A stretch of DNA of 64,000 nt from an uncultured delta proteobacterium (GTDB lineage: Bacteria > Myxococcota_A > Polyangia > Polyangiales > B10-G4). Under the pieces are notes generated by a model that ran no database searches, was not told the DNA's origin, and saw only the letters and a program-made list of their open reading frames with translations. The stretch's first letter is position 1. Each line of letters starts with the position of its first letter. Below, piece by piece: positions 20,233-30,505 of the stretch. Both the position numbers and the translations under genes were made by a program. Location: contig CAVSGI010000013.1 of the NCBI GenBank assembly GCA_963727445.1, positions 320,001 through 384,000 of the forward strand, given 5' to 3'.

Positions 20233-21921
20233 ATGGCTTACTCCCTGACCATCGGGCTCCGCTATCTGCGCTCCAAGAAGCGATCGACGGTGTCCTTGAT
20301 CACCGTGATCGCCGTGGCCGGTGTCGCGCTCGGGGTGGGAGCGCTGCTCGCGGTGCTGAGCATCACCAGCGGTTTTCAGGACGCGTTTCGCGACAAGGTC
20401 CTGGGTGTCAACGCCCACGTCCTGGTGCTGAAGTACGGTCTCGACTTCGACGAGTACCGCGACGTCATCACCATGGCGGACGAGATGCCCGAGGTGGCCG
20501 GGGCCGCGCCCTTCGTCATCAACGAGATGATGTTGGCCAAGGGCGACCGCATCGGCGGCGTGCTGGTGAAGGGCGTGGACCCGGAGCTGATGCCGTCGGT
20601 GCTGGACCTGCCGAGTCAGATGGTGGCGGGTTCCCTCGACGGACTGCGGCGCCCCGACGCGCATCCGCCTCTGTCACCCGACGATCTCTCCGCCGGCGGC
20701 GATGCGATGGGCGAAGACCTCGACGACTACCTGCGCGGGCTCACCGGCGAGGGCGACGAGGAAGATGCGCCCGACGCGGGCGCGATGACCGAGGAGCAGA
20801 TGGAGGCGCTCCGGGATCGGATCGCGGAGACGGGCGGTGACGAGCCGCTGATCGTCGGCGACGAAGACGCGCCCGACGCGGCCGCGGAGTGGCAGCCCGT
20901 CTGGGAGACGGATCCCCAACTCGCGGGCGACGGCGAAGGCGACGAGATCGAGCCGCTCCCCGAGGTCGAGGTCCCCACCCTCGAGGAGATGCAGCAGGCG
21001 CTCTCCGAGCTGGACGAGGGCGAGGGGCTGCCCACGGACGACGCCGAGCGCGAGCTCTTCGAAGAGGAAGCCCGCGAGCGCGAGCAAGCCGAGGGTGTGG
21101 TCGATGCGCAGGACCTGCCCGGCGTGGTGGTCGGCAAGACGCTGGCCGCGAACCTCGGTCTCGAGATCGGCGACCGCGTGCGGGTCATCTCGCCCCTCGC
21201 CGGCCTCGACACGAGCCTCTGGGCGCCCAACGACCGCACGCCGCGCAGCCGCGAGTTCCGCGTCATCGGCGTCTTCGAAGCGGGCTTTCAGGAGTACGAC
21301 AGCCGCCTGATCTACGTGGACCTCTACGAGGCGCAGTCCTTCTTCGATCAGGGAGACACGGTCACCGGCGTCGAGATGCGCTTGAACGACATCGACGCGG
21401 CGCCCGAGATCGCACGCAAGATCGAACGCGAGCTCGGCGGCGGTCCCTTCCACACGATGGACTGGGAGGAGCTCAACCGAAACCTCTTCACCGCTCTCGA
21501 GATTCAGAAGGTGATGCTGAGCCTGGTCACCTCCGCGATCATGGTGGTGGCGGCGCTGGTGGTGATCGCGACGCTGATCATCCTGGTACTCGAAAAGAAG
21601 CGCGAGATCGCGATCCTCAAGGCGATGGGCGCGAAGGACTTCAGCGTCCTCGGCATCTTCATGGTGCAGGGTCTGGTGATCGGCGCCTTCGGTACGCTCA
21701 TCGGGCTCTTGTTGGGCGGCGGGGCCGTCGCCTATCTCGACCTCTACCAATTCCCGCTCGATCCGAAGGTGTATCTGATCGACCACCTCCCGGTGCGGAT
21801 CAGCTCGTGGGAGTTCGTGCTGACGACCGGTGTGGCCTTCGCCATCTGCCTTCTGGCGACGCTGATCCCGAGCTGGTGGGCGGCGCGCCTGTTGCCAGCC
21901 GACGGCGTCCGCTACGAGTAG
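20233..21921 (+). CDS. LolC/LolE-family lipoprotein-releasing ABC permease with a large acidic insertion
   Basis: IGLRYLRSK, GVALGV, SITSGF, MacB periplasmic core, EKKREIAILKAMGA, FtsX C-terminus. Confidence 0.9.
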   Translation: MAYSLTIGLRYLRSKKRSTVSLITVIAVAGVALGVGALLAVLSITSGFQDAFRDKVLGVNAHVLVLKYGLDFDEYRDVITMADEMPEVAGAAPFVINEMMLAKGDRIGGVLVKGVDPELMPSVLDLPSQMVAGSLDGLRRPDAHPPLSPDDLSAGGDAMGEDLDDYLRGLTGEGDEEDAPDAGAMTEEQMEALRDRIAETGGDEPLIVGDEDAPDAAAEWQPVWETDPQLAGDGEGDEIEPLPEVEVPTLEEMQQALSELDEGEGLPTDDAERELFEEEAREREQAEGVVDAQDLPGVVVGKTLAANLGLEIGDRVRVISPLAGLDTSLWAPNDRTPRSREFRVIGVFEAGFQEYDSRLIYVDLYEAQSFFDQGDTVTGVEMRLNDIDAAPEIARKIERELGGGPFHTMDWEELNRNLFTALEIQKVMLSLVTSAIMVVAALVVIATLIILVLEKKREIAILKAMGAKDFSVLGIFMVQGLVIGAFGTLIGLLLGGGAVAYLDLYQFPLDPKVYLIDHLPVRISSWEFVLTTGVAFAICLLATLIPSWWAARLLPADGVRYE

Positions 21922-21963
21922 CGCGGAGCGAGGCGTGATAGGGTCCCGCCGATCGGAGGGGCC

Positions 21964-22305
21964 TTGAAGATCGTCATGTACGTCCTGGCCGTGTTGGTCG
22001 GCCTTCTCGGTTTGGTCTTCGTCGCGGGGAACCAGGGCGAGGTGCTGCGCATCGTGGTCGGCGCGGTGTTGATCGCCGCAGCGATCGCCATGGTGGTCGC
22101 GGCGCGCATGCGCCCGCAGGTCACACAGCGGAACATCGTCCAGCGCATCGACGTGGGCGGTGACGTCCGCCTCGAAGAGCTGAAGTGCCAGAAGTGCGGG
22201 GCGACGCTCTCGAAGGAGGCGGTGACGGTGCACGAGGGAGCTGTGATGGTCGCGTGCCCCTACTGCCAGGCCAGCTACCAGATGGAGGAGGCGCCGAAAT
22301 GGTGA
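21964..22305 (+). CDS. Small two-TM membrane protein with C-terminal zinc ribbon
   Basis: GGAGG RBS before TTG; two hydrophobic helices; CQKC...CPYC; stop overlaps next ATG (TGATG). Confidence 0.8.
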   Translation: MKIVMYVLAVLVGLLGLVFVAGNQGEVLRIVVGAVLIAAAIAMVVAARMRPQVTQRNIVQRIDVGGDVRLEELKCQKCGATLSKEAVTVHEGAVMVACPYCQASYQMEEAPKW

Positions 22306-23897
22306 TGCTCTTTTCGAACGTGGCGCGCGCCATCCAGAAGGACGTGGGCGCCTTCTTCGGAGCGGTGCGCGGCGAAGACGAGGTCCCCATCCCGCGCGGG
22401 CTGAACACCTACCCGTTCACCGGAAATGGTGGGCAGACGCGGCTGCATCTCCGCGTTCAGGACGACGGAACCGGCCTGCTCTTTCGCGATGTCACCGACG
22501 TCATCCACCTGACCACCACCGCCACCGAGATGATCTGGATGGCCCTCGAGGGCTGGCCGCCGCGCCGGGCGCTCGGCGCGCTCTCGCGGCGCTACCGGGG
22601 CACGCGCGGGGACTTCGCGGCGGACTACGCGCGGATGCAGCGAGTGGTGCAGGTGTTGTCGACGCCCTCCGCCAGCTGTCACACCTGCGCCCTCGAGCTG
22701 CCGCAGGTGCCGCTCTTCAGCCAGCGCGCCCGCGCGCCGCACAAGGTCGACCTCGCGCTCACCTACGCCTGCAACAACCGCTGCCCGCACTGCTACAACG
22801 ACCCGGAGCGCTTCGACATGCGCGCGCTGCCGGTCGACGATTGGAAGCGCATCCTCGATCAGCTCGCGGAGGTCGGCGTCCCGCACGTGATCTTCACCGG
22901 CGGCGAAGCCACCGTCTACAAGGGCCTCGAAGAGCTCATCGCCCACGCCGACCAGGCGGGGATGATGACCGGGCTCAACTCCAACGGACGGCGCCTCCGC
23001 GATCGCGCGTACGTCGAACGGCTTCGCGACGCCGGCCTCGACCACGTGCAGATCACCCTCGAGAGCCACCACGCCGCGGTGCACGACGCCATGGTCGGCG
23101 CCCGCGCCTGGGAAGAATGCGTGGCCGGCGTGCGCGCCTGCGTCGAGACCGAGGGCCTCCACGTCATCACCAACACCACCATCACGCGCGTCAACGCCGC
23201 CGAGATCGGCGAGACGGTGGAGTTCCTGGGCGACCTGGGCCTGAGCACCTTCGCGATGAACGGGATGATCTACTCGGGCGGCGGCGACGCGAACCCCGAT
23301 GCCATCCCCCAGGACGCCCTGCCCTCGCTCCTGATCGAGGTCCGCGACACCGCCGAGGAGCGCGGGCTGCGGTTCCTCTGGTACACGGTCACCGAGTACT
23401 GCGAGATGAACCCGGTCGAGCTCGAGATCGGGGCCAAGCGCTGTAACGCAGGCGAGTACTCGATGTGCATCGAGCCGAACGGCGACGTGCTGCCCTGCCA
23501 GAGCTACTACATCTCCGCCGGGAACATGCTTCGAGATCCCTGGAGCGAGATCTGGCGCGGCGAGCTCTTCCGCTCCTTCCGCGACCGCGAGGACGATCCA
23601 GCGTGGGCGGGGCTCCCCGACAAGTGCCACACCTGCCCGGACCTGCCGCTCTGCGGCGGGGGCTGCCGCATCGAGCGCGAGTCTGCGGCGGGCGTGGCCC
23701 CGGGCGGCTGTCAGAGCTGCGCGAGCGGCGGACTCACGACGGGACGCGGGATCCGCTCGACAGGCGTCAGCGCCGCGAGCCACTGCACCTGCGGCGAAGG
23801 AGAGAGCGCCGGAGCCGGATGCGCGAGCGATGTGCACCGCGCACCGATGGGTCTCGTCACCCTGCGCATCCCGGAGCGGACGGAGGTCTCGCGATGA
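22305..23897 (+). CDS. Radical SAM/SPASM protein with N-terminal PqqD/RRE-like domain
   Basis: CNNRCPHC, FTGGE, SPASM CNAG...CIEPNGDVLPC and CHTCPDLPLCGGGC; alternative start ATG 22299. Confidence 0.92.
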   Translation: MLFSNVARAIQKDVGAFFGAVRGEDEVPIPRGLNTYPFTGNGGQTRLHLRVQDDGTGLLFRDVTDVIHLTTTATEMIWMALEGWPPRRALGALSRRYRGTRGDFAADYARMQRVVQVLSTPSASCHTCALELPQVPLFSQRARAPHKVDLALTYACNNRCPHCYNDPERFDMRALPVDDWKRILDQLAEVGVPHVIFTGGEATVYKGLEELIAHADQAGMMTGLNSNGRRLRDRAYVERLRDAGLDHVQITLESHHAAVHDAMVGARAWEECVAGVRACVETEGLHVITNTTITRVNAAEIGETVEFLGDLGLSTFAMNGMIYSGGGDANPDAIPQDALPSLLIEVRDTAEERGLRFLWYTVTEYCEMNPVELEIGAKRCNAGEYSMCIEPNGDVLPCQSYYISAGNMLRDPWSEIWRGELFRSFRDREDDPAWAGLPDKCHTCPDLPLCGGGCRIERESAAGVAPGGCQSCASGGLTTGRGIRSTGVSAASHCTCGEGESAGAGCASDVHRAPMGLVTLRIPERTEVSR

Positions 23898-25126
23898 CCA
23901 GCCCCCTCACCCACTTCTCCCGCGAGCGCGACGGTCAGGTCGCGCGCTATCACCTGCGCGTCGATCCCGACGGCTCGGGGATCCTCCTCGCCAACGCTTC
24001 GGCCGCGCTTCGCCTCTCACAAACCGGCGTGATCATCGCCCGCGGGATCCTCGAAGGCGCGAGCCCCGGGCGCATCTCCAAGGACCTCGCGCGCAAGTTC
24101 GCGCACGTCGACCGATCGAAGGCGAGCCAGGACGTCGACCGCGTCGGCAAGGCGATCGACGACCTCGCCCGCCCGCGTGACGGGATCGCGCTGACCAGCC
24201 TCGACGACCCAGATGCCACGCTGCACCGGCGCGCGCTCTCGGCGCCGCTCTGCGCCGAGGTGGTCACGCCCTCGGCGGGTCGAGCGAAGGAGATCGTCCA
24301 CCGCCTCTGGGACATCGGCATTCCGCAGGTGCGCTTCGTGCTTCCCGTGGGCCACAACGCCGGCCATCTCGTTCACCTGGTAGAGGCGGCGGAGGACGTG
24401 GGGATGATCACCGGCGTGCGCGCGCGGGCGTCGGACCTGATGCCGGAGACCGTGGTCCGCGGCCTGGCCATGGCGGGGCTCGACCACCTCGACCTGCTCT
24501 GGAGCGGTGTCGACCCGCAGATGCACGAGGACCTCTTCGGCGAAGGGGACCTCGCGCATGCGGAGAGGCTCCTCGCGCTCTGTCACGACCTCGAGCTCTT
24601 CCCGATCGCCGTCATGCCGTTGCTCGGGGCGATCCTCGACGATCTCGACGACCTGGGTCGCGTCCTCGCGAAGCATCGCATCGAGGCGCTGGTGGCTTAT
24701 GCCATCACCGACGAGGACGGGCAGGGTCGCGCACTGTCGAGCATCGAGCTCCCACAGGTGGCGACCAGCCTCGAAGAGGTGGCCGAGCACGGCAACATCA
24801 ACCTCGTATGGGCGGCGCCGGAAGAGCGCGACCCGTCGATCACGCTGGTGGAGCAGGTCGCGGCCGGACCGCGCGCCGCGGGCGAGGCCTGCATCCGCAT
24901 CGAGGCCGACGGGCGGGTGATCGCGCCCAACGGGCCGGCGACGATGGCGGGCAACCTCTTCGACGATCCCTGGGAAAAGATCTGGCAGGCCCCGATCTTC
25001 CACCACTGGCGCACGTCGGTGGACGATCCGCCGCGGTGCACGATGTGCCCGGGGCTCGCCCTCTGCGCCGCCGGCTGCCCGAAAGACCGCGCGACCTGGG
25101 CCACCCTTTCTGGAGGTGAGAAGTGA
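23894..25126 (+). CDS. Degenerate radical SAM/SPASM paralogue lacking CxxxCxxC, with RRE-like N-terminus
   Basis: ATGA overlap; HLRVDPDGSGILL matches HLRVQDDGTGLL of the upstream gene; no CxxxCxxC; retains CTMCPGLALCAAGC. Confidence 0.8.
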   Translation: MTSPLTHFSRERDGQVARYHLRVDPDGSGILLANASAALRLSQTGVIIARGILEGASPGRISKDLARKFAHVDRSKASQDVDRVGKAIDDLARPRDGIALTSLDDPDATLHRRALSAPLCAEVVTPSAGRAKEIVHRLWDIGIPQVRFVLPVGHNAGHLVHLVEAAEDVGMITGVRARASDLMPETVVRGLAMAGLDHLDLLWSGVDPQMHEDLFGEGDLAHAERLLALCHDLELFPIAVMPLLGAILDDLDDLGRVLAKHRIEALVAYAITDEDGQGRALSSIELPQVATSLEEVAEHGNINLVWAAPEERDPSITLVEQVAAGPRAAGEACIRIEADGRVIAPNGPATMAGNLFDDPWEKIWQAPIFHHWRTSVDDPPRCTMCPGLALCAAGCPKDRATWATLSGGEK

Positions 25127-26991
25127 TGCGCCGCCTCTCGACTTGGGCCGCCCTCACGGCCGCGACGATCGTGCTCCTCTTCCCGGCGCTGGCGACGGCT
25201 CCTGCCGCTGCGCAGACCTATGCGTTCTCCGTCCCGCAGGTGACGATGGAGTGCAGGGTCAACACCGACGCCTCGGTGCGCATCCACTACATCATCGAGT
25301 TCGAGAACAGCTCCTACGGCTCGCCCATCGACGTGGTCGACGTGGGGCTTCCCCACGACGATTACCGAATCTCGAACATGCGGGCGTCCCTCGACGGCGT
25401 GGAGACGCACGCCATCGCACCCTCCACCTACATCGACACCGGCGTCGAAGTGCACATCGGCGCCGGGATCCCGGCCGGGGCCCGCGGCGTCTTCGAGTTC
25501 ACGACGACCATGCCGGATCTCGTATTCTCGGACACGACCGACGATGCGCTGGCGTCGATACGCATCACGCCCACCTGGTTCGATGGAGCCCTCGTCACCG
25601 GCGACACCGATCTGCGCATCGCCATCGAGCTGCCGCCGGGCGTGAACGCCGAAGAGGTCCTGAATCAGGGCACGCCGTTCTACAACAAGGCCGACCTCGA
25701 CGATCACGCGCTTGTCGGCTTCCGCTTCGAGCACACGCGCTTCACCGAGGCGCACATGGTCGGCATCTCCTTCCCGCGCCGAGTGATGAGCCGCGTGGTG
25801 GAGATCACCAAGTGGGACCTCCTCGTGAAGTGGTGGGAAGACAACCCGAAGGTCCGCGTCATCGCCGGCATCCTGATGCTGCTGGTGTCGCTCCTCTTCT
25901 TCATGCGCTTCACCGGCTTCACCGGCTGGTCGGTCTTCATCTTCCTCGCAGGCGTGGTGGGGGTGCTCTGCTACTTCGCGCCGTTGGTGCAGCTGGTTCT
26001 GATCCCGGTCATCCCGGTGGTCGGCGCGCTCCTCGAATGGCGCACGCAGCGGAGAAAACGGACGTACCTGCCGCCCATCGCCTCGGTGGAAGGCGGCGGG
26101 ATCAAGCGCGGGCTCACCGCGCCCGAGGCCGCGGTGCTCCTCGAGCTGCCCCTGGGCCGGGTGCTGACGCTGGTCGTCTTCGGGATGCTGCGGAAGCGCC
26201 TGTTGATCCAGCAGAACCTCAAGCCGCTCACCGTGAGCATCGTCCCTGCCATCGCCCAGGCCAAGAAGCACAAGGCGCGGCGGCGGGCGGCGGCTCAGGC
26301 CGGGCTGGTGATCCACGCCTATGAGCACGCCTTCCTCGACGCCATCGACGACAGCCGCGGCCTCTCGGTGAACGAGGTCGACTTCGGCGCGGCGATGAAG
26401 AAGCTCGTCGAGCACGTCGCGGAGCGCGTGCTCGGCTTCGACGTGGACCAGACGAAGAAGTACTACCGGTATCAGATCCAGCGCGCGTGGACCGAGGCCG
26501 AGGCCATCGGCGAGCTAGACATGCGCACCAAGAAGGTCGACGAGAAGCTCGAGTGGTTGCTCATGGACGACGACTACGACGACCGCTTCTCGAGTTGGGG
26601 GACGGGCGGCTACTGGTACCGGCCCACCTGGGGCTACGTCCACACGGGCGGCGGCGTCGATCTCGGCAGCGTCGCCGACGCAGCGGCGTCCGCCGGCGGG
26701 GGCGCCATCGACCACACGCAGACGAGCTTCGGCGACGTGGCGGCGGGCTTCGCCGGGTGGACCGAGCGCGTCACCGGCCAGCTCTCGAACGCCATCCGGC
26801 CGGGCGACGTGAACGCGGCGGCCGCCGGCGGCGTCATCGATCTCTCCGGCGCCGACAAGGTGACGGGCGAGGTCCTCGAAGCCTTCTTCTCCAACAGCGG
26901 CGGCGGTGGCGGAGGTGGCGGCGGCGGGGGCTGCGCGTGCGCCTGCGCCGGCTGCGCGTGCGCGTGCGCCTGTGCCGGCGGCGGCCGATGA
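25126..26991 (+). CDS. DUF2207-like membrane protein with Gly-linker and (Cys-Ala)n C-terminal tail
   Basis: Signal peptide, VNTDASVRIHY exported domain, three TM helices, LTAPEAAVLL, YEHAFL, tail G11-CACACAGCACACACAGGGR. Confidence 0.82.
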   Translation: MRRLSTWAALTAATIVLLFPALATAPAAAQTYAFSVPQVTMECRVNTDASVRIHYIIEFENSSYGSPIDVVDVGLPHDDYRISNMRASLDGVETHAIAPSTYIDTGVEVHIGAGIPAGARGVFEFTTTMPDLVFSDTTDDALASIRITPTWFDGALVTGDTDLRIAIELPPGVNAEEVLNQGTPFYNKADLDDHALVGFRFEHTRFTEAHMVGISFPRRVMSRVVEITKWDLLVKWWEDNPKVRVIAGILMLLVSLLFFMRFTGFTGWSVFIFLAGVVGVLCYFAPLVQLVLIPVIPVVGALLEWRTQRRKRTYLPPIASVEGGGIKRGLTAPEAAVLLELPLGRVLTLVVFGMLRKRLLIQQNLKPLTVSIVPAIAQAKKHKARRRAAAQAGLVIHAYEHAFLDAIDDSRGLSVNEVDFGAAMKKLVEHVAERVLGFDVDQTKKYYRYQIQRAWTEAEAIGELDMRTKKVDEKLEWLLMDDDYDDRFSSWGTGGYWYRPTWGYVHTGGGVDLGSVADAAASAGGGAIDHTQTSFGDVAAGFAGWTERVTGQLSNAIRPGDVNAAAAGGVIDLSGADKVTGEVLEAFFSNSGGGGGGGGGGGCACACAGCACACACAGGGR

Positions 26992-27006
26992 CGCATTCGC
27001 GTCCAC

Positions 27007-27025
27007 TTTGGGCCCCAGGCCCAAA
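27007..27025. terminator. Perfect 8-bp hairpin after the CACAC-tail gene (terminator, processing site or operator)
   Basis: TTTGGGCC-CCA-GGCCCAAA. Confidence 0.4.
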
Positions 27026-27055
27026 TTGAACACGAATGCCGCGATCCGATCACAC

Positions 27056-27814
27056 ATGGCCGATATGAGCGAAGGCGCGCCGCCCAGCATCCCGCCAGAG
27101 TCGGTCCTTCGCGCCCAGGACGCGCTGATCGCGCCGATGCGCTCGCGCATCCTGCGGCGCATCGGCATCGGCCACCGCGGGCCCGTCCTCGACCTCGGCG
27201 CGGGGCCGGGGGTGGTGAGCGCGGAGCTGTTGCGGCGGAGCCGCGGTCCGGTGGTCGCCCTCGATCGCGATCCCATCGTGAAGAAGGCGCCCGCCGACGA
27301 GCGCGTCGTCGCCGACGCGACCGCCCTGCCCTTCGCCTCGGGCCGCTTCGCGCTCGTCTACGCGCAGTTCGTCTTTCTCTGGAACGACGCGGCGGCGCGA
27401 CGCCGCATCGCCGAGGAGATCGCTCGGGTGCTCTCACCGGACGGCGTGGTGGTGATCGTCGAGCCGGACTATCACGCCGCCATCGAGCACCCCCCCACCA
27501 TCGCCATCGCCCCGACCGCCGCCGCCGCCATCGCACGCGCGGGTGGGGTGCCCGACGTCGCCCGGCGCCTGCCGGCGGAGCTCTGTGAGGCGGGCCTGAC
27601 GGTGCGCATCGAGCAGAGCCCGGAGCTCGTCCCGCCCAATCCCGCGCGCTTCGCCGCGCTCGAAGGATTGCCGCTCACCGCCGAGGAGCAGGCGCGCATC
27701 GCGCAGGCGAAGAACGCTGACGCCGCGCTTCGCCCCGACGCCCGCTTCGCTCACGTACCGCTCTTCTTCTTCACTGCCGAGTCTGGGGCCTCGGGTCGAC
27801 GACGCGGCCCATGA
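27056..27814 (+). CDS. Class I SAM-dependent methyltransferase
   Basis: VLDLGAGPG, VVALDRD, ADATALPF, ARVLSPDG, EPDY. Confidence 0.85.
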   Translation: MADMSEGAPPSIPPESVLRAQDALIAPMRSRILRRIGIGHRGPVLDLGAGPGVVSAELLRRSRGPVVALDRDPIVKKAPADERVVADATALPFASGRFALVYAQFVFLWNDAAARRRIAEEIARVLSPDGVVVIVEPDYHAAIEHPPTIAIAPTAAAAIARAGGVPDVARRLPAELCEAGLTVRIEQSPELVPPNPARFAALEGLPLTAEEQARIAQAKNADAALRPDARFAHVPLFFFTAESGASGRRRGP

Positions 27815-29132
27815 AGAGGATCGTCCCCGAGCTCGGCTCGCGGATGGCGAAGAGGAAGGGGCGGTCGGCGCGGATCTCGATCGGCTCGGCGGGTCGCCCG
27901 CCGCCAAAGCCCATCGTGACCGCGGTGGCCGCGGCCGCCTCGGTCCCCTCTTCGTCCACCTTCACGAACACCTGGTGGTACGCCTCGCTCACATAGAGGC
28001 GCTCGTCGGGGTCGGCGGGGCGCCCGATGCCGAAGAAGTCGGCTGCGCCGTCGTCGAACGCGAGACGCATGCCGAGCGCCTTCAGGGCTGTGGAGAGGGT
28101 CATGCGGGTCGACATCTCGAAGCGCGGCATCACCAGGCGCACCCGGTCCTGTGAGAGAAGCCCGACCCATCGCTCGAACTGATCACCCGAGAGCTGGCCT
28201 TCGATGGCTGGCAGGCCCGTGGCCGAGTCGGGGATGATCAGCGTCATCACCAGCTCGTCGCCGCGGTAGGGCAGCTCGACCACCGTCACGTCGCCGCGAT
28301 GCGCGTGCTTCAGGTTCTCGGTCTGCCGCATCAGCGGCACCTCGATGGTCGAGCCATCGGCGAGAGTGAAGCGCTCGTCGCGAGTGAGCGCTGAATCGAA
28401 GGGCTCGGCCCACGCGCCCAGGAAATAGACGGCGTTGACCAGCACCAGGCCGGTGTCGGCGGTGATCGAAGTCGGGGGCAACAGATCGGTGATCCGCTCG
28501 CGTGTCTGTTGGGCGACCCATTCGTTGATGTGCTCGCGCTGCTCGTTCGGCGCGCCGTGGAAGTCCACGCCTTCGAAGGGCGCGGCGTAGGTGGTGCGCG
28601 TCAGCGTGAGGTAGTCCTGCTCGAAGCGAGCGCTCTGCTCGCCGAAGAGGCGATCCACGACGCGCAGCTCGTAATCCTCGCGGTTCGGATCGTTCCAGCG
28701 CGCGAGCACGCGGCCCGCGGCTTCGTGCACCGCGTCGGCGTCCCCAACGAGGCCCATGGTGCGCGCCATCTCCGCTGCGGTCTCACCCCGGGCGCCGCCG
28801 AAGACCATCTCGAAGGCGAGGGTGATGGAGGCCGGCGAGATCGCGAGATTGCCGTCGGCTCCGCGCGCCTGCCCGTAGATCGCGAAGCCGAAGGCGTTGC
28901 TGGTGCGAGCGAAGGCCGAGGCCTGCTCCGCCGTGGGCGGCTCCTGCTCGCGCGGCTCGGGGTTCGAGAAGAACGACTCCGGCGCTTCGTCGTTGCCGGC
29001 GCCCTCGCTTTCGGCCTCGGCCGTCTCCGGCGCTTCGGTGCTGATCTGCGGCGCGGACGGCTGCGTGACGGGCCCGTTCGTCCCGCACTTGCAGGCGCAG
29101 AGCGCCATCAAGACCACGAAGAATCGCCGCAT
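27771..29132 (-). CDS. Serpin (serine protease inhibitor), lipoprotein
   Basis: NLAISPASI, GARGET, LVNAVYFLGAW, hinge DEEGTEAAAAT, ADRPFLF, ILFMGRV; ATG 29132 with lipobox-like Cys. Confidence 0.95.
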   Translation of the reverse strand: MRRFFVVLMALCACKCGTNGPVTQPSAPQISTEAPETAEAESEGAGNDEAPESFFSNPEPREQEPPTAEQASAFARTSNAFGFAIYGQARGADGNLAISPASITLAFEMVFGGARGETAAEMARTMGLVGDADAVHEAAGRVLARWNDPNREDYELRVVDRLFGEQSARFEQDYLTLTRTTYAAPFEGVDFHGAPNEQREHINEWVAQQTRERITDLLPPTSITADTGLVLVNAVYFLGAWAEPFDSALTRDERFTLADGSTIEVPLMRQTENLKHAHRGDVTVVELPYRGDELVMTLIIPDSATGLPAIEGQLSGDQFERWVGLLSQDRVRLVMPRFEMSTRMTLSTALKALGMRLAFDDGAADFFGIGRPADPDERLYVSEAYHQVFVKVDEEGTEAAAATAVTMGFGGGRPAEPIEIRADRPFLFAIREPSSGTILFMGRVVDPRPQTRQ

Positions 29133-29143
29133 CGTCCCTCCGT

Positions 29144-30505
29144 TCAACGACTGACGTCGAAGGCCCTGGACGTCGAGATCCGGCGGCAGAGCCCGGGGGT
29201 GAACTCGCACGAAGAGACGGCGGCGGTCAATGCTCCCGGCACCAGGATGGCGTCGCGCGTCTCGATCGGCAGCTCCGGGAAGAGGCCGCGGGCGCGAGCC
29301 GCGCCCCAGTACTGGACGTACCAGCGCGGCGCAGTGTCCACCGCGTAGGTGACGCGCTGGATGGTGTCGGCTGCGGTCGATGTCCAGCGCACGCGCTCCG
29401 TCAACGCGATCCCGTCGGCGGTCGCGACGTCCAGCGTCGGCGGCGAGAGGAATTCGGCGTCGATCGGCGCGCTGGGCGGCCCGTCCCAATCGAGGACGAC
29501 GCTCGACTGACCGCCGCCGTCCGACTCGAGCTGCAGCGTGAGGAAGGACGCTTCGCCCGCCGGCGGATCGACGAGGCCTAGCCGGGCGGTGACCACGCCG
29601 GTGGCTTCGGTGTAGGTGGTCTCGAGAGGGAAGCCGACGGTGGCGCCGATCTGTCCGCGCGGCGTGACCGTGCTGAGCGCGGCGAGTGGTAGCGCGCTGT
29701 CGAAGAACGGCGTGCCGCTCGGCACCACGTAGGCGATGGTCCGCTCCGCGAGCGGGACGTCGGTGGAGAAGTCGAGGACCAGGTCCGTCGTCTCGTCTGC
29801 CGCTGGCGTCTCGAGGAAGGTCGCGTCCACCATCCACTGTCGGCCGCGCGCGCCGAAGGTCGCAGGCGAGAGCGCCCAGGCCCAACCGATCAACGTGGTG
29901 GAGGGCTGAGGCGACATGCGGATGGTCCAGGGGAGCGTGAGAAAGCCGCGGAACTGGAGCGCGTCGCCGTCGAGTGGCTCGACGAAGAGCGTGGACAGGC
30001 CCGCCGGTGCATTCACCACGGTGCCGGAGAGAGAGATGGTGGCGACGCGCTCGAGGGCGATCACCATCTGGGCCTCCTCGGCGGTGACGGGCCAGCCGCG
30101 ATCCTCGTGATGACGGATCACCTCGCGGTCGAAACCGACGTAGGTGGTCGCGATGTAGTCGGGATGGAAGGCGGTGAGCACCAGCTCACCCGCGTCGATG
30201 TCGACCCCATCGAAGGTCACCGCACCCCTGCGATTGGTCGTCGCGGACAGGAGCCCATCCGGGGTGTCGAGGAAGACCTGCGCGTCTTCGATCGGCACGA
30301 GGTCGGCGACGGGGCTGCTCACCACCACCACCGTGAACCGAAGCGGCGCCTGGGCGTCGGCGTCTTCATCGGCGGAGGCGGCGTCCGAAGCGGGGGTGGT
30401 GTCGGCCGTCGCGTCGGTGAGCGCCCCGCCATCGTCGCCACATCCGACCGTCACCGCCGCGGCGGCGAGGAGCAGGCGAAGCAAGCTCTCGGTCGTGAGA
30501 ATCAC
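29144..30505 (-). CDS. Hypothetical lipoprotein (beta-rich, carboxypeptidase-regulatory-like segment)
   Basis: Lipobox VTVG-C; PIEDAQV...TTNRRGAVTF; start overlaps upstream stop. Confidence 0.65.
   Translation of the reverse strand: MILTTESLLRLLLAAAAVTVGCGDDGGALTDATADTTPASDAASADEDADAQAPLRFTVVVVSSPVADLVPIEDAQVFLDTPDGLLSATTNRRGAVTFDGVDIDAGELVLTAFHPDYIATTYVGFDREVIRHHEDRGWPVTAEEAQMVIALERVATISLSGTVVNAPAGLSTLFVEPLDGDALQFRGFLTLPWTIRMSPQPSTTLIGWAWALSPATFGARGRQWMVDATFLETPAADETTDLVLDFSTDVPLAERTIAYVVPSGTPFFDSALPLAALSTVTPRGQIGATVGFPLETTYTEATGVVTARLGLVDPPAGEASFLTLQLESDGGGQSSVVLDWDGPPSAPIDAEFLSPPTLDVATADGIALTERVRWTSTAADTIQRVTYAVDTAPRWYVQYWGAARARGLFPELPIETRDAILVPGALTAAVSSCEFTPGLCRRISTSRAFDVSR

Follow-up and report, generated by a model that had tools for sequence, protein, structure and literature searches.

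A conserved five-gene radical SAM cassette points to an undescribed modification system for a membrane protein with a Cys-Ala tail

To our knowledge, maturases of the radical S-adenosylmethionine (rSAM)/SPASM type are known almost only from small secreted peptides, and whole-protein cases such as quinohemoprotein amine dehydrogenase (QHNDH) and CrpA are few. What, then, does such an enzyme act on when its operon holds no precursor peptide? We address this question for a locus at positions 21964-27814 of a 64,000-nucleotide (nt) stretch of contig CAVSGI010000013.1 (here, the window) from an uncultured delta proteobacterium. Its five genes encode a membrane zinc-ribbon protein (here ZnR), a true rSAM/SPASM enzyme, a paralogue of that enzyme without the cluster motif (here pseudo-rSAM), a membrane protein ending in a Cys-Ala tail, and a methyltransferase. 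Taken together, the evidence points to an undescribed protein-modification system. Judging from sequence conservation and gene linkage, we place the probability that the tail of the membrane protein is the rSAM substrate at roughly 0.6.

The Cys-Ala tail and the genes that accompany it

The five genes are co-directional, and their features in the window are as follows.

21964-22305, + strand: ZnR, 113 residues; an open reading frame (ORF) with two N-terminal transmembrane (TM) helices and a C-terminal cytoplasmic zinc ribbon, CQKCG...CPYC
22305-23897, + strand: true rSAM/SPASM enzyme, 530 residues from the ATG at 22305; alternative start GTG at 22302
23894-25126, + strand: pseudo-rSAM paralogue, 410 residues; a domain like the RiPP (peptide made by the ribosome and modified post-translationally) recognition element (RRE) and a barrel remnant without CxxxCxxC
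25126-26991, + strand: membrane protein, 621 residues from the ATG at 25126 (ORF and AlphaFold 2 [AF2] model)
26056-26118, + strand: juxtamembrane segment of the membrane protein, residues 311-331, RTYLPPIASVEGGGIKRGL (conservation and predicted interface)
26899-26931, + strand: run of eleven glycines, residues 592-602 of the membrane protein, a flexible spacer ahead of the tail (sequence)
26932-26991, + strand: tail CACACAGCACACACAGGGR, residues 603-621, with the stop codon; proposed rSAM substrate (conservation)
27056-27814, + strand: class I SAM-dependent methyltransferase, 252 residues (Pfam Methyltransf_11, 1.7e-12)

The first four genes are chained by overlapping stop and start codons (TGATG between ZnR and rSAM, ATGA between rSAM and pseudo-rSAM, and TGATG between pseudo-rSAM and the membrane gene), and a GGAGG precedes all three overlapping starts at a distance of 8-17 nt. 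The methyltransferase gene begins 64 bp past the membrane gene, which itself ends as G11-CACACAGCACACACAGGGR-stop (26899-26991). The sole gaps in the operon are thus the 42 bp before ZnR (21922-21963) and the 64 bp before the methyltransferase (26992-27055), leaving no room for a separate precursor ORF inside it. A scan of 21500-28300 found no promoter-like sites and four terminator-like sites against 1.3 expected, none of them at a gene end. Among sequencing runs, no RNA set was listed as containing this DNA, and three DNA runs contain only small shares (0.05-0.16). The preliminary description of this DNA had proposed four overlap-chained genes followed by a methyltransferase, a 621-residue protein ending in a G11 run and a Cys-Ala tail, and no small precursor ORF nearby. 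An ORF check reproduced every coordinate and junction, and the other two points held up as well: the core of the tail recurs in all 120 homologues described below, and no conserved small-ORF cluster was found, at a minimum of 50 residues, among 98 related loci (79 from a metagenome scan and 19 from a genome scan).

The window protein has at least 522 homologues, and a family profile (search space, 1.84 billion) retrieved cluster representatives (50% identity) numbering 1013 at E <= 1e-3, 752 at E <= 1e-10, and 386 at E <= 1e-30. All the sequences deposited at source bear the name "hypothetical protein." The family divides into two subfamilies, which have ZnR, a true rSAM, a pseudo-rSAM, a tailed membrane protein, and a methyltransferase in common. 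Type 1 is ordered as in the window (ZnR, rSAM, optional inserts, pseudo-rSAM, sometimes a second tailed membrane gene, membrane gene, methyltransferase), with a tail of the form (CA)2-3 G (CA)4 GGGR. In type 2 the order is ZnR, one or two membrane genes, rSAM, pseudo-rSAM, and methyltransferase; the membrane protein is 26-33% identical to that of the window and carries a permuted tail, CACACACAGCACACAGGGR, of the form (CA)3-4 G (CA)3 GGGR. Type 2 is the larger group, with at least 4679 matches labeled mostly as Anaerolineales or Chloroflexota.

Among the 120 type-1 homologues listed (43-83% identity to the window protein), the core of the tail is identical in every one; at the end, (CA)CACAGCACACACAGGG is completed by R in 118 and by V in 2. 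Among the labels of their sources are Deltaproteobacteria, Anaerolineae, Armatimonadota, and Planctomycetes metagenome-assembled genomes. Likewise, C607 to G620 are invariant in an alignment of 82 sequences, and 118 of the 120 type-2 homologues listed have the canonical permuted tail. When we considered the best 150 representatives of the 50%-identity clusters, 111 had the canonical [(CA)n G] x 2-3 GGx end, and the remaining 39 were mostly fragments or frameshifts, with a few informative variants.

The DNA behind this peptide is far more variable. The 105 tails from the window and the fetched loci comprise 101 distinct DNA versions, in which synonymous codons differ at every position (TGC 395 and TGT 282; GCC 396, GCG 157, GCT 64, and GCA 60; four Gly, six Arg, and three stop codons). 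Free third codon positions under a fixed peptide indicate selection on the amino acids rather than on a DNA repeat, and we rejected a DNA-level repeat or Z-DNA element on the same grounds. We also considered stand-alone tail peptides or split genes: 111 of the 120 listed matches of 30-341 residues bear the tail, and the short tail-bearing matches (to query residues 500-622) are short-contig fragments, late start calls, or frameshifts, with no convincing independent small gene, so this candidate was rejected too.

A few natural variants of the tail exist. In eight rare sequences, changes include replacement of the middle Ala-Gly by AS, VS, or DS, one uninterrupted (CA)5 block, CACACACACAGGGR, and one short GSCACAGGGR; the final CAGGGR is always retained.

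The neighboring genes are conserved along with the tail. For the linkage counts, three duplicate loci were dropped and only loci with enough flanking sequence were scored. In type 1, a pseudo-rSAM gene lies within 400 bp upstream of the membrane gene in 46 of 48 loci, the exceptions being L078 (a gap of about 480 bp) and L057. The true rSAM is found upstream in 22/34 loci, ZnR upstream in 21/34, and the methyltransferase directly downstream in 32/43. ZnR always adjoins the true rSAM in type-1 loci, including those in which the pair is unlinked from the membrane gene, and four of five genomes tested whose locus has no local rSAM encode a ZnR-rSAM pair (55-57% identity) elsewhere. In type 2, ZnR directly precedes the membrane gene in all 15 loci, rSAM follows in 13/14, a second rSAM-like gene is present in 8/9, and a methyltransferase lies downstream in 5/6. 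The cassette thus often, but not always, includes the methyltransferase. The co-occurrence of tailed homologues with ZnR and both rSAM paralogues, suggested in the preliminary description as a check, is thus observed, with pseudo-rSAM as the close neighbor and the rSAM-ZnR pair adjacent or elsewhere in the genome.

Genomes were also sampled from the phylum of the window. The membrane protein occurs in four of 201 (G000, G012, G082, and G097), an rSAM orthologue (E <= 1e-129) in G000, G012, and G082, and a pseudo-rSAM in G000, G082, and G097. The membrane gene of G012 begins 485 bp from a contig end. Among the other 197 genomes we found neither enzyme, apart from two weaker rSAM/SPASM matches (36-38% identity) that lack the N-terminal part.

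Several loci contain additional genes. In eleven cassettes the membrane gene is present as two tandem paralogues, each about 40% identical to the family of the other and both ending in the canonical tail. The genes inserted between rSAM and pseudo-rSAM in six type-1 loci (for example, L034:1557-4737) include those for a Ser/Thr protein kinase (Pkinase, 4.3e-45), a GNAT acetyltransferase (1.3e-25), an uncharacterised 182-residue protein, and a 228-residue protein that weakly matches the activation domain of MetH (PF02965, 3.3e-5). Near the methyltransferase of three type-2 loci (for example, L095:13705-16680) are genes for a phosphatase of the dual-specificity type (Tc-R-P, 3.1e-18) and a signal peptidase of the S26 type (2.2e-50), and the same loci have an uncharacterised protein of about 350 residues between the two rSAM-like genes. 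The kinase in type 1 and the phosphatase in type 2 together give hints of a link between the cassette and phosphorylation signaling.

The rSAM pair and a predicted contact with the membrane protein

The true rSAM enzyme has the RRE-rSAM-SPASM architecture of a RiPP maturase. Pfam matches it to Radical_SAM (3.9e-26) and SPASM (1.6e-12), and the window protein contains CNNRCPHC, a CxxxCxxC motif for the SAM-binding [4Fe-4S] cluster. The corresponding CN[ND]xCxHC is invariant in 34/34 aligned orthologues and, like CxxCx5Cx3C, is present in every complete one. The full SPASM pattern, Cx9-15Gx4C...CxxCx5Cx3C...C, is found, with C381, G394, C399, C442, C445, C451, and C455 invariant. At the N-terminus, the AF2 model (pLDDT [predicted score of the local distance difference test], 82) has strands at residues 33-70 followed by three helices at 72-120, a PqqD-type, RRE-like arrangement. 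No Pfam PqqD match to the window protein itself was found at E <= 0.01; assignment of the RRE draws on this fold, on a PqqD match in the type-2 orthologue (1.1e-6), and on a Foldseek alignment of the whole protein to the RRE-bearing SkfB and SuiB. SkfB is also the first Foldseek match overall (E 1.5e-16), with SuiB, PqqE, and CteB (8th-9th) among the top matches. Among solved chains, PqqE (77 bits) and SkfB (71 bits) are closest in sequence.

No named family claims this enzyme. None of the NCBIfam models reaches its cut-off, the best being PqqE (TIGR02109) at 126 bits versus 381, and the cassette contains no pqq genes, so that neither the score nor the PqqA-D partners of PqqE are present. The scores for the sactisynthase-type models also fall far short of their cut-offs (SkfB, 83 bits versus 300; StsB, 97 versus 625; AlbA, 55 versus 850), and TIGR04463, the CrpC family, is absent from the 25 best of 64 NCBIfam matches.

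Outside the three cluster motifs, the enzyme has further conserved cysteines. C126, in a CxTC that follows the RRE (residues 126-129), and C367 are invariant, and a GGCxxC (about residues 468-471) lies after the SPASM domain; an additional metal site could be built from these cysteines.

The pseudo-rSAM is 23% identical to the rSAM over 440 residues (E 7e-32). A 22-residue cluster loop containing CxxxCxxC has been deleted from it, leaving only CxxCx5Cx3C, and no member of the pseudo-rSAM family has CxxxCxxC; in type 2 the SPASM cysteines are lost too. Pfam and NCBIfam matches are weak (PqqD at residues 36-83, SPASM, and TIGR04347), and a profile search for solved relatives returned only PqqE (E 0.0086).

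Does either protein contact the membrane protein? We modeled pseudo-rSAM (46-row alignment) together with membrane-protein residues 311-621 (82-row alignment). The interface score ipSAE was 0.74 (runs of 0.77, 0.74, and 0.74), versus 0.00 for the best control. A score of 0.74 was attained by 116/157 solved complexes and 2/215 mismatched pairs, counts that are only approximate here because custom alignments were fed to the prediction. The runs had at least 46% of contacts in common, and the partner pLDDT was at least 62. In the confident interface, pseudo-rSAM residues 28-91, the PqqD-like domain, meet membrane-protein residues 311-331; additional contacts are predicted between pseudo-rSAM residues 248-299 and 381-392 and membrane-protein residues 356-358 and 383-398. 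The predicted complex thus supports binding of pseudo-rSAM to the membrane protein. Docking of an RRE domain on the cytoplasmic part, which the preliminary description had suggested as a point to check by prediction, is in line with this model; the contact falls on the juxtamembrane segment and not on the tail.

That segment, YLPPIAxVEGGGIKRGL, is the most conserved stretch of the membrane protein apart from the tail. Y314, P316, R328, G329, and L330 never vary, conservation is at least 90% over V321-K327, and the segment is retained in type-2 proteins and in tail-less paralogues. The AF2 model of the whole protein (pLDDT 82) consists of a signal-peptide helix, a periplasmic beta-sandwich (residues 34-217), three TM helices (residues 241-310), a cytoplasmic helical domain (residues 332-493), and a disordered end (residues 508-621) made up of linker and tail. 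Given its signal peptide, its odd helix count, and the five Lys/Arg directly after the last helix, the C-terminal half of the protein, including the tail, would lie in the cytoplasm (the hydropathy and topology analysis is numbered from the GTG start, one residue higher than the ATG numbering used here). The spacer ahead of the tail is Gly/Ser-rich in homologues and variable in length and sequence. The body of about 600 residues, periplasmic domain included, keeps about 45% identity across phyla. Structural matches of the periplasmic domain are generic beta-sandwiches, the M1 aminopeptidase N-domain, and ribophorin I, and are uninformative on function.

The membrane protein has no Pfam or NCBIfam family match. 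By protein-language-model features its nearest named clusters are DUF2207/DUF2207_C (0.93-0.95; PF09972, PF20990), which share a signal peptide, an extracytoplasmic beta domain, TM helices, a cytoplasmic domain, and a Gly-rich C-terminus. The DUF2207 Pfam models do not detect the window protein. There is no match at E <= 10, and whole-genome scans with PF09972 and PF20990 miss the membrane gene, so membership was rejected. Apart from one mutant study, we know of no assigned function for DUF2207, and of no Cys-Ala tail in it.

Variants of the membrane protein were seen in other genomes. Six family members of 766-948 residues place the TM, cytoplasmic, and tail module after a larger, different N-terminal region, in which no Pfam domain was found. 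Short paralogues of the cytoplasmic module (266-333 residues) are encoded at L068:245-1141, L073:766-1767, L074:1781-2617, and L083:9984-10784 (minus strand). They retain the EGGGIKRG motif and the helical domain and end in a conserved ...ATFYG, without the periplasmic domain, the Gly run, or the Cys-Ala tail; the one in L073 lies directly 3' of a true rSAM gene. These proteins could be decoys, regulators, or a third substrate type. None was found in the genome of the window besides the tailed protein itself.

The two remaining members of the cassette are less distinctive. ZnR has hydrophobic segments at residues 3-21 and 27-45 by hydropathy, followed by CxxC-x19-CxxC, and only weak zinc-ribbon matches in Pfam and NCBIfam. 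The methyltransferase is a generic class I enzyme, with no solved relative in the PDB at E <= 1e-3. Neither it (42.4 bits) nor its type-2 counterpart (53.3 bits) reaches the cut-off of 155 for the DVU_1556 family (NF045667).

What may happen to the tail

The tight and ancient association of these parts fits a maturation system in which the tail is the substrate and the dead paralogue an adaptor. We envision a membrane-bound system centered on the C-terminal (Cys-Ala)n tail of a DUF2207-like membrane protein, which a glycine-rich tether would suspend in the cytoplasm. The rSAM paralogue, itself catalytically dead, would grip the juxtamembrane segment through its RRE-type domain and recruit or position the active RRE-rSAM-SPASM enzyme; ZnR, paired with the active enzyme, may serve as a tether or possibly as an electron entry point. 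The active enzyme would then alter the tail by radical chemistry, and the methyltransferase, where present, might decorate it further. The modified tail would most likely remain on the protein as a built-in prosthetic group.

Cys thioethers are the common outcome for the RRE-rSAM-SPASM architecture, and thioethers to the neighboring Ala would be the likeliest products. Ala is conserved as strictly as Cys along the tail, which suggests a part for Ala in the chemistry or in the fit to the active site and speaks against a plain metal-binding string. If S-to-C-alpha links joined adjacent residues, six-membered thiomorpholine rings like those of enteropeptins would result. By analogy with known maturases, we hold the thioether assignment only tentatively, as about half as probable as that of the substrate. 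A fuller version is distinctly speculative as a whole: the tail would become a run of adjacent thioether heterocycles (e.g., Cys-Ala thiomorpholines), retained as a redox or metal-binding cofactor at the cytoplasmic face, with the dead rSAM as an obligatory docking subunit and ZnR as anchor or electron entry.

Several observations weigh against the tail as substrate. CxC-rich sequences are classic metal-binding motifs too. The tail lies outside the confident predicted interface, which is formed by the juxtamembrane segment, and the best NCBIfam matches of the rSAM, all far under their cut-offs, are PqqE, AhbD, and NirJ-type models and not sactisynthase models. Linkage also has its exceptions: no rSAM-type gene was found in 7.9 kb upstream at L057 (type 1) or in 3.9 kb downstream at L107 (type 2), and fragmented assemblies yielded no true rSAM orthologue in G004, which has the membrane protein, no true rSAM in G097, and no pseudo-rSAM in G012. 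Finally, the cytoplasmic topology derives from AF2 helices, a signal peptide, and the positive-inside rule only, and homology does not allow the chemistry to be assigned.

One possibility, and the alternative that survives best, is that the tail is an unmodified set of metal- or iron-sulfur-binding CxC ligands and that the rSAM pair either builds or inserts a metal cluster there or works on a different substrate, with the membrane protein serving only as its dock or regulator. The six to seven alternating cysteines on a flexible tether do resemble metallothionein CxC motifs, the juxtamembrane interface would suit a dock, and PqqE, AhbD, and NirJ are cofactor-type enzymes. The authors of the CrpA study likewise suspect a metal-related role for that Cys-rich protein (PMC13692751). 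However, invariant Ala spacers are needless for simple metal ligation, and the rare natural variants alter the middle Ala-Gly pair only. Both enzymes, moreover, carry RRE-type peptide-recognition domains, and the best Foldseek matches are peptide maturases. Overall we consider unmodified metal ligation unlikely, though it has to be taken seriously.

A second alternative treats the tail as a tethered RiPP precursor: the membrane protein would be a giant leader or scaffold, and the modified tail would be cut off and released or exported as a bioactive or metal-binding peptide. The layout is indeed leader-like, with an upstream recognition segment, a flexible linker, and a C-terminal core, and the tail ends in an invariant GGGR; mycofactocin and pyrroloquinoline quinone (PQQ), moreover, derive from the C-terminal residues of their precursors. 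Yet neither gene order shows a conserved protease or exporter, and the S26 signal peptidase near some type-2 loci is not general. The conservation of the 600-residue body across phyla goes far beyond the need of a leader, and the tail is placed in the cytoplasm. Release by proteolysis, an option raised in the preliminary description, thus finds no support in the cassette, and we regard a tethered precursor as improbable. A transmembrane sensor, the other option raised there, is compatible with the data but draws no support from them.

That the rSAM pair works on an unlinked small precursor or small molecule, with the membrane protein as an immunity, transport, or sensing partner whose tail is kept for an unrelated reason, is very improbable: many rSAM/SPASM enzymes do act on small peptides whose ORFs gene callers miss, and ours were clustered only from 50 residues up, but the operon has no intergenic space for one, no small-ORF cluster recurs in the sampled loci, and the pseudo-rSAM overlaps the membrane gene in the window, adjoins it in nearly all type-1 loci, and is predicted to dock on its product.

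The genes on either side of the cassette do not recur in related loci. Upstream, at 20233-21921, is a gene for a lipoprotein-release permease of the LolC/E type; a long and highly acidic stretch of about 170 residues, inserted in the periplasmic domain, divides its match (TIGR02212, 1.2e-91) in two. Downstream, a serpin gene on the minus strand (27774-29885; Pfam Serpin, 4.9e-106) converges on the end of the methyltransferase gene, with a 3'-terminal overlap of about 40 bp between the ORFs.

The family, whose strictly conserved Cys-Ala repeat spans 17-19 residues, numbers in the thousands, from Chloroflexota, Myxococcota-type, Planctomycetota, and Armatimonadota genomes. If this tail is indeed modified, the system would define a novel kind of post-translational modification and, probably, of protein-derived cofactor. 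It would also give a first functional handle on the DUF2207-like membrane proteins and a clean example of a pseudo-enzyme, a dead rSAM, retained as a substrate-docking subunit.

Comparison with known systems

How does the cassette relate to systems already described? None of the five proteins, whether of type 1 or type 2, is claimed by a Pfam or NCBIfam (release 20) model at a score above the cut-off of that model. We found no description of the system, and no instance of the exact tail string, in the literature searched; the supplement of PMC13692751, which covers rSAM-associated Cys-rich proteins from all domains, could include the family. The closest label for the pseudo-rSAM is TIGR04347, "pseudo-SAM/SPASM protein," which likewise describes an rSAM/SPASM-like protein without CxxxCxxC that is encoded with an active system; at 26.8 bits versus a cut-off of 525, the window protein falls outside that family.

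Sactipeptide and ranthipeptide maturases that begin with an RRE (SkfB, CteB, AlbA, and StsB) resemble the window enzyme in fold, domain order, SPASM auxiliary clusters, and a Cys-rich candidate substrate. Unlike those systems, the window has no short leader-core precursor, and its only Cys-rich candidate is the tail of a 621-residue protein.

QhpD, which acts on QhpC of quinohemoprotein amine dehydrogenase, is an rSAM-SPASM enzyme that places Cys thioethers on a protein subunit, where they are kept in the working structure. Its acceptors are Asp and Glu, and its substrate is a small soluble subunit. We know of no pseudo-rSAM partner for QhpD.

Enteropeptins offer a chemical parallel only. There, an rSAM enzyme joins the Cys sulfur to the alpha-carbon of the next residue to form a six-membered thiomorpholine (PMC12395415), and such an S-to-C-alpha bond between neighbors is the geometry that a Cys-Ala repeat would offer. 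The acceptor in enteropeptins is N-methylornithine, whereas in the window the candidate acceptor is Ala.

A close parallel is CrpC of Methanococcus voltae, an RRE-rSAM-SPASM enzyme assigned to TIGR04463; it forms ranthionine thioethers in the Cys-rich C-terminal part of the 29-kDa protein CrpA (PMC13692751, which also cites QHNDH as a protein-thioether case). In both systems, the enzyme gene stands beside a gene for a large protein whose Cys-rich part is C-terminal, a recognition element lies upstream of that part, a second related protein may act as a helper, and the product would be a modified protein. The substrate candidate of the window differs in being a polytopic membrane protein with a short (Cys-Ala)n tail, whereas CrpA has ten 17-residue CxxQ/D repeats, and the window set adds a cluster-less rSAM paralogue, a membrane zinc-ribbon protein, and a methyltransferase.

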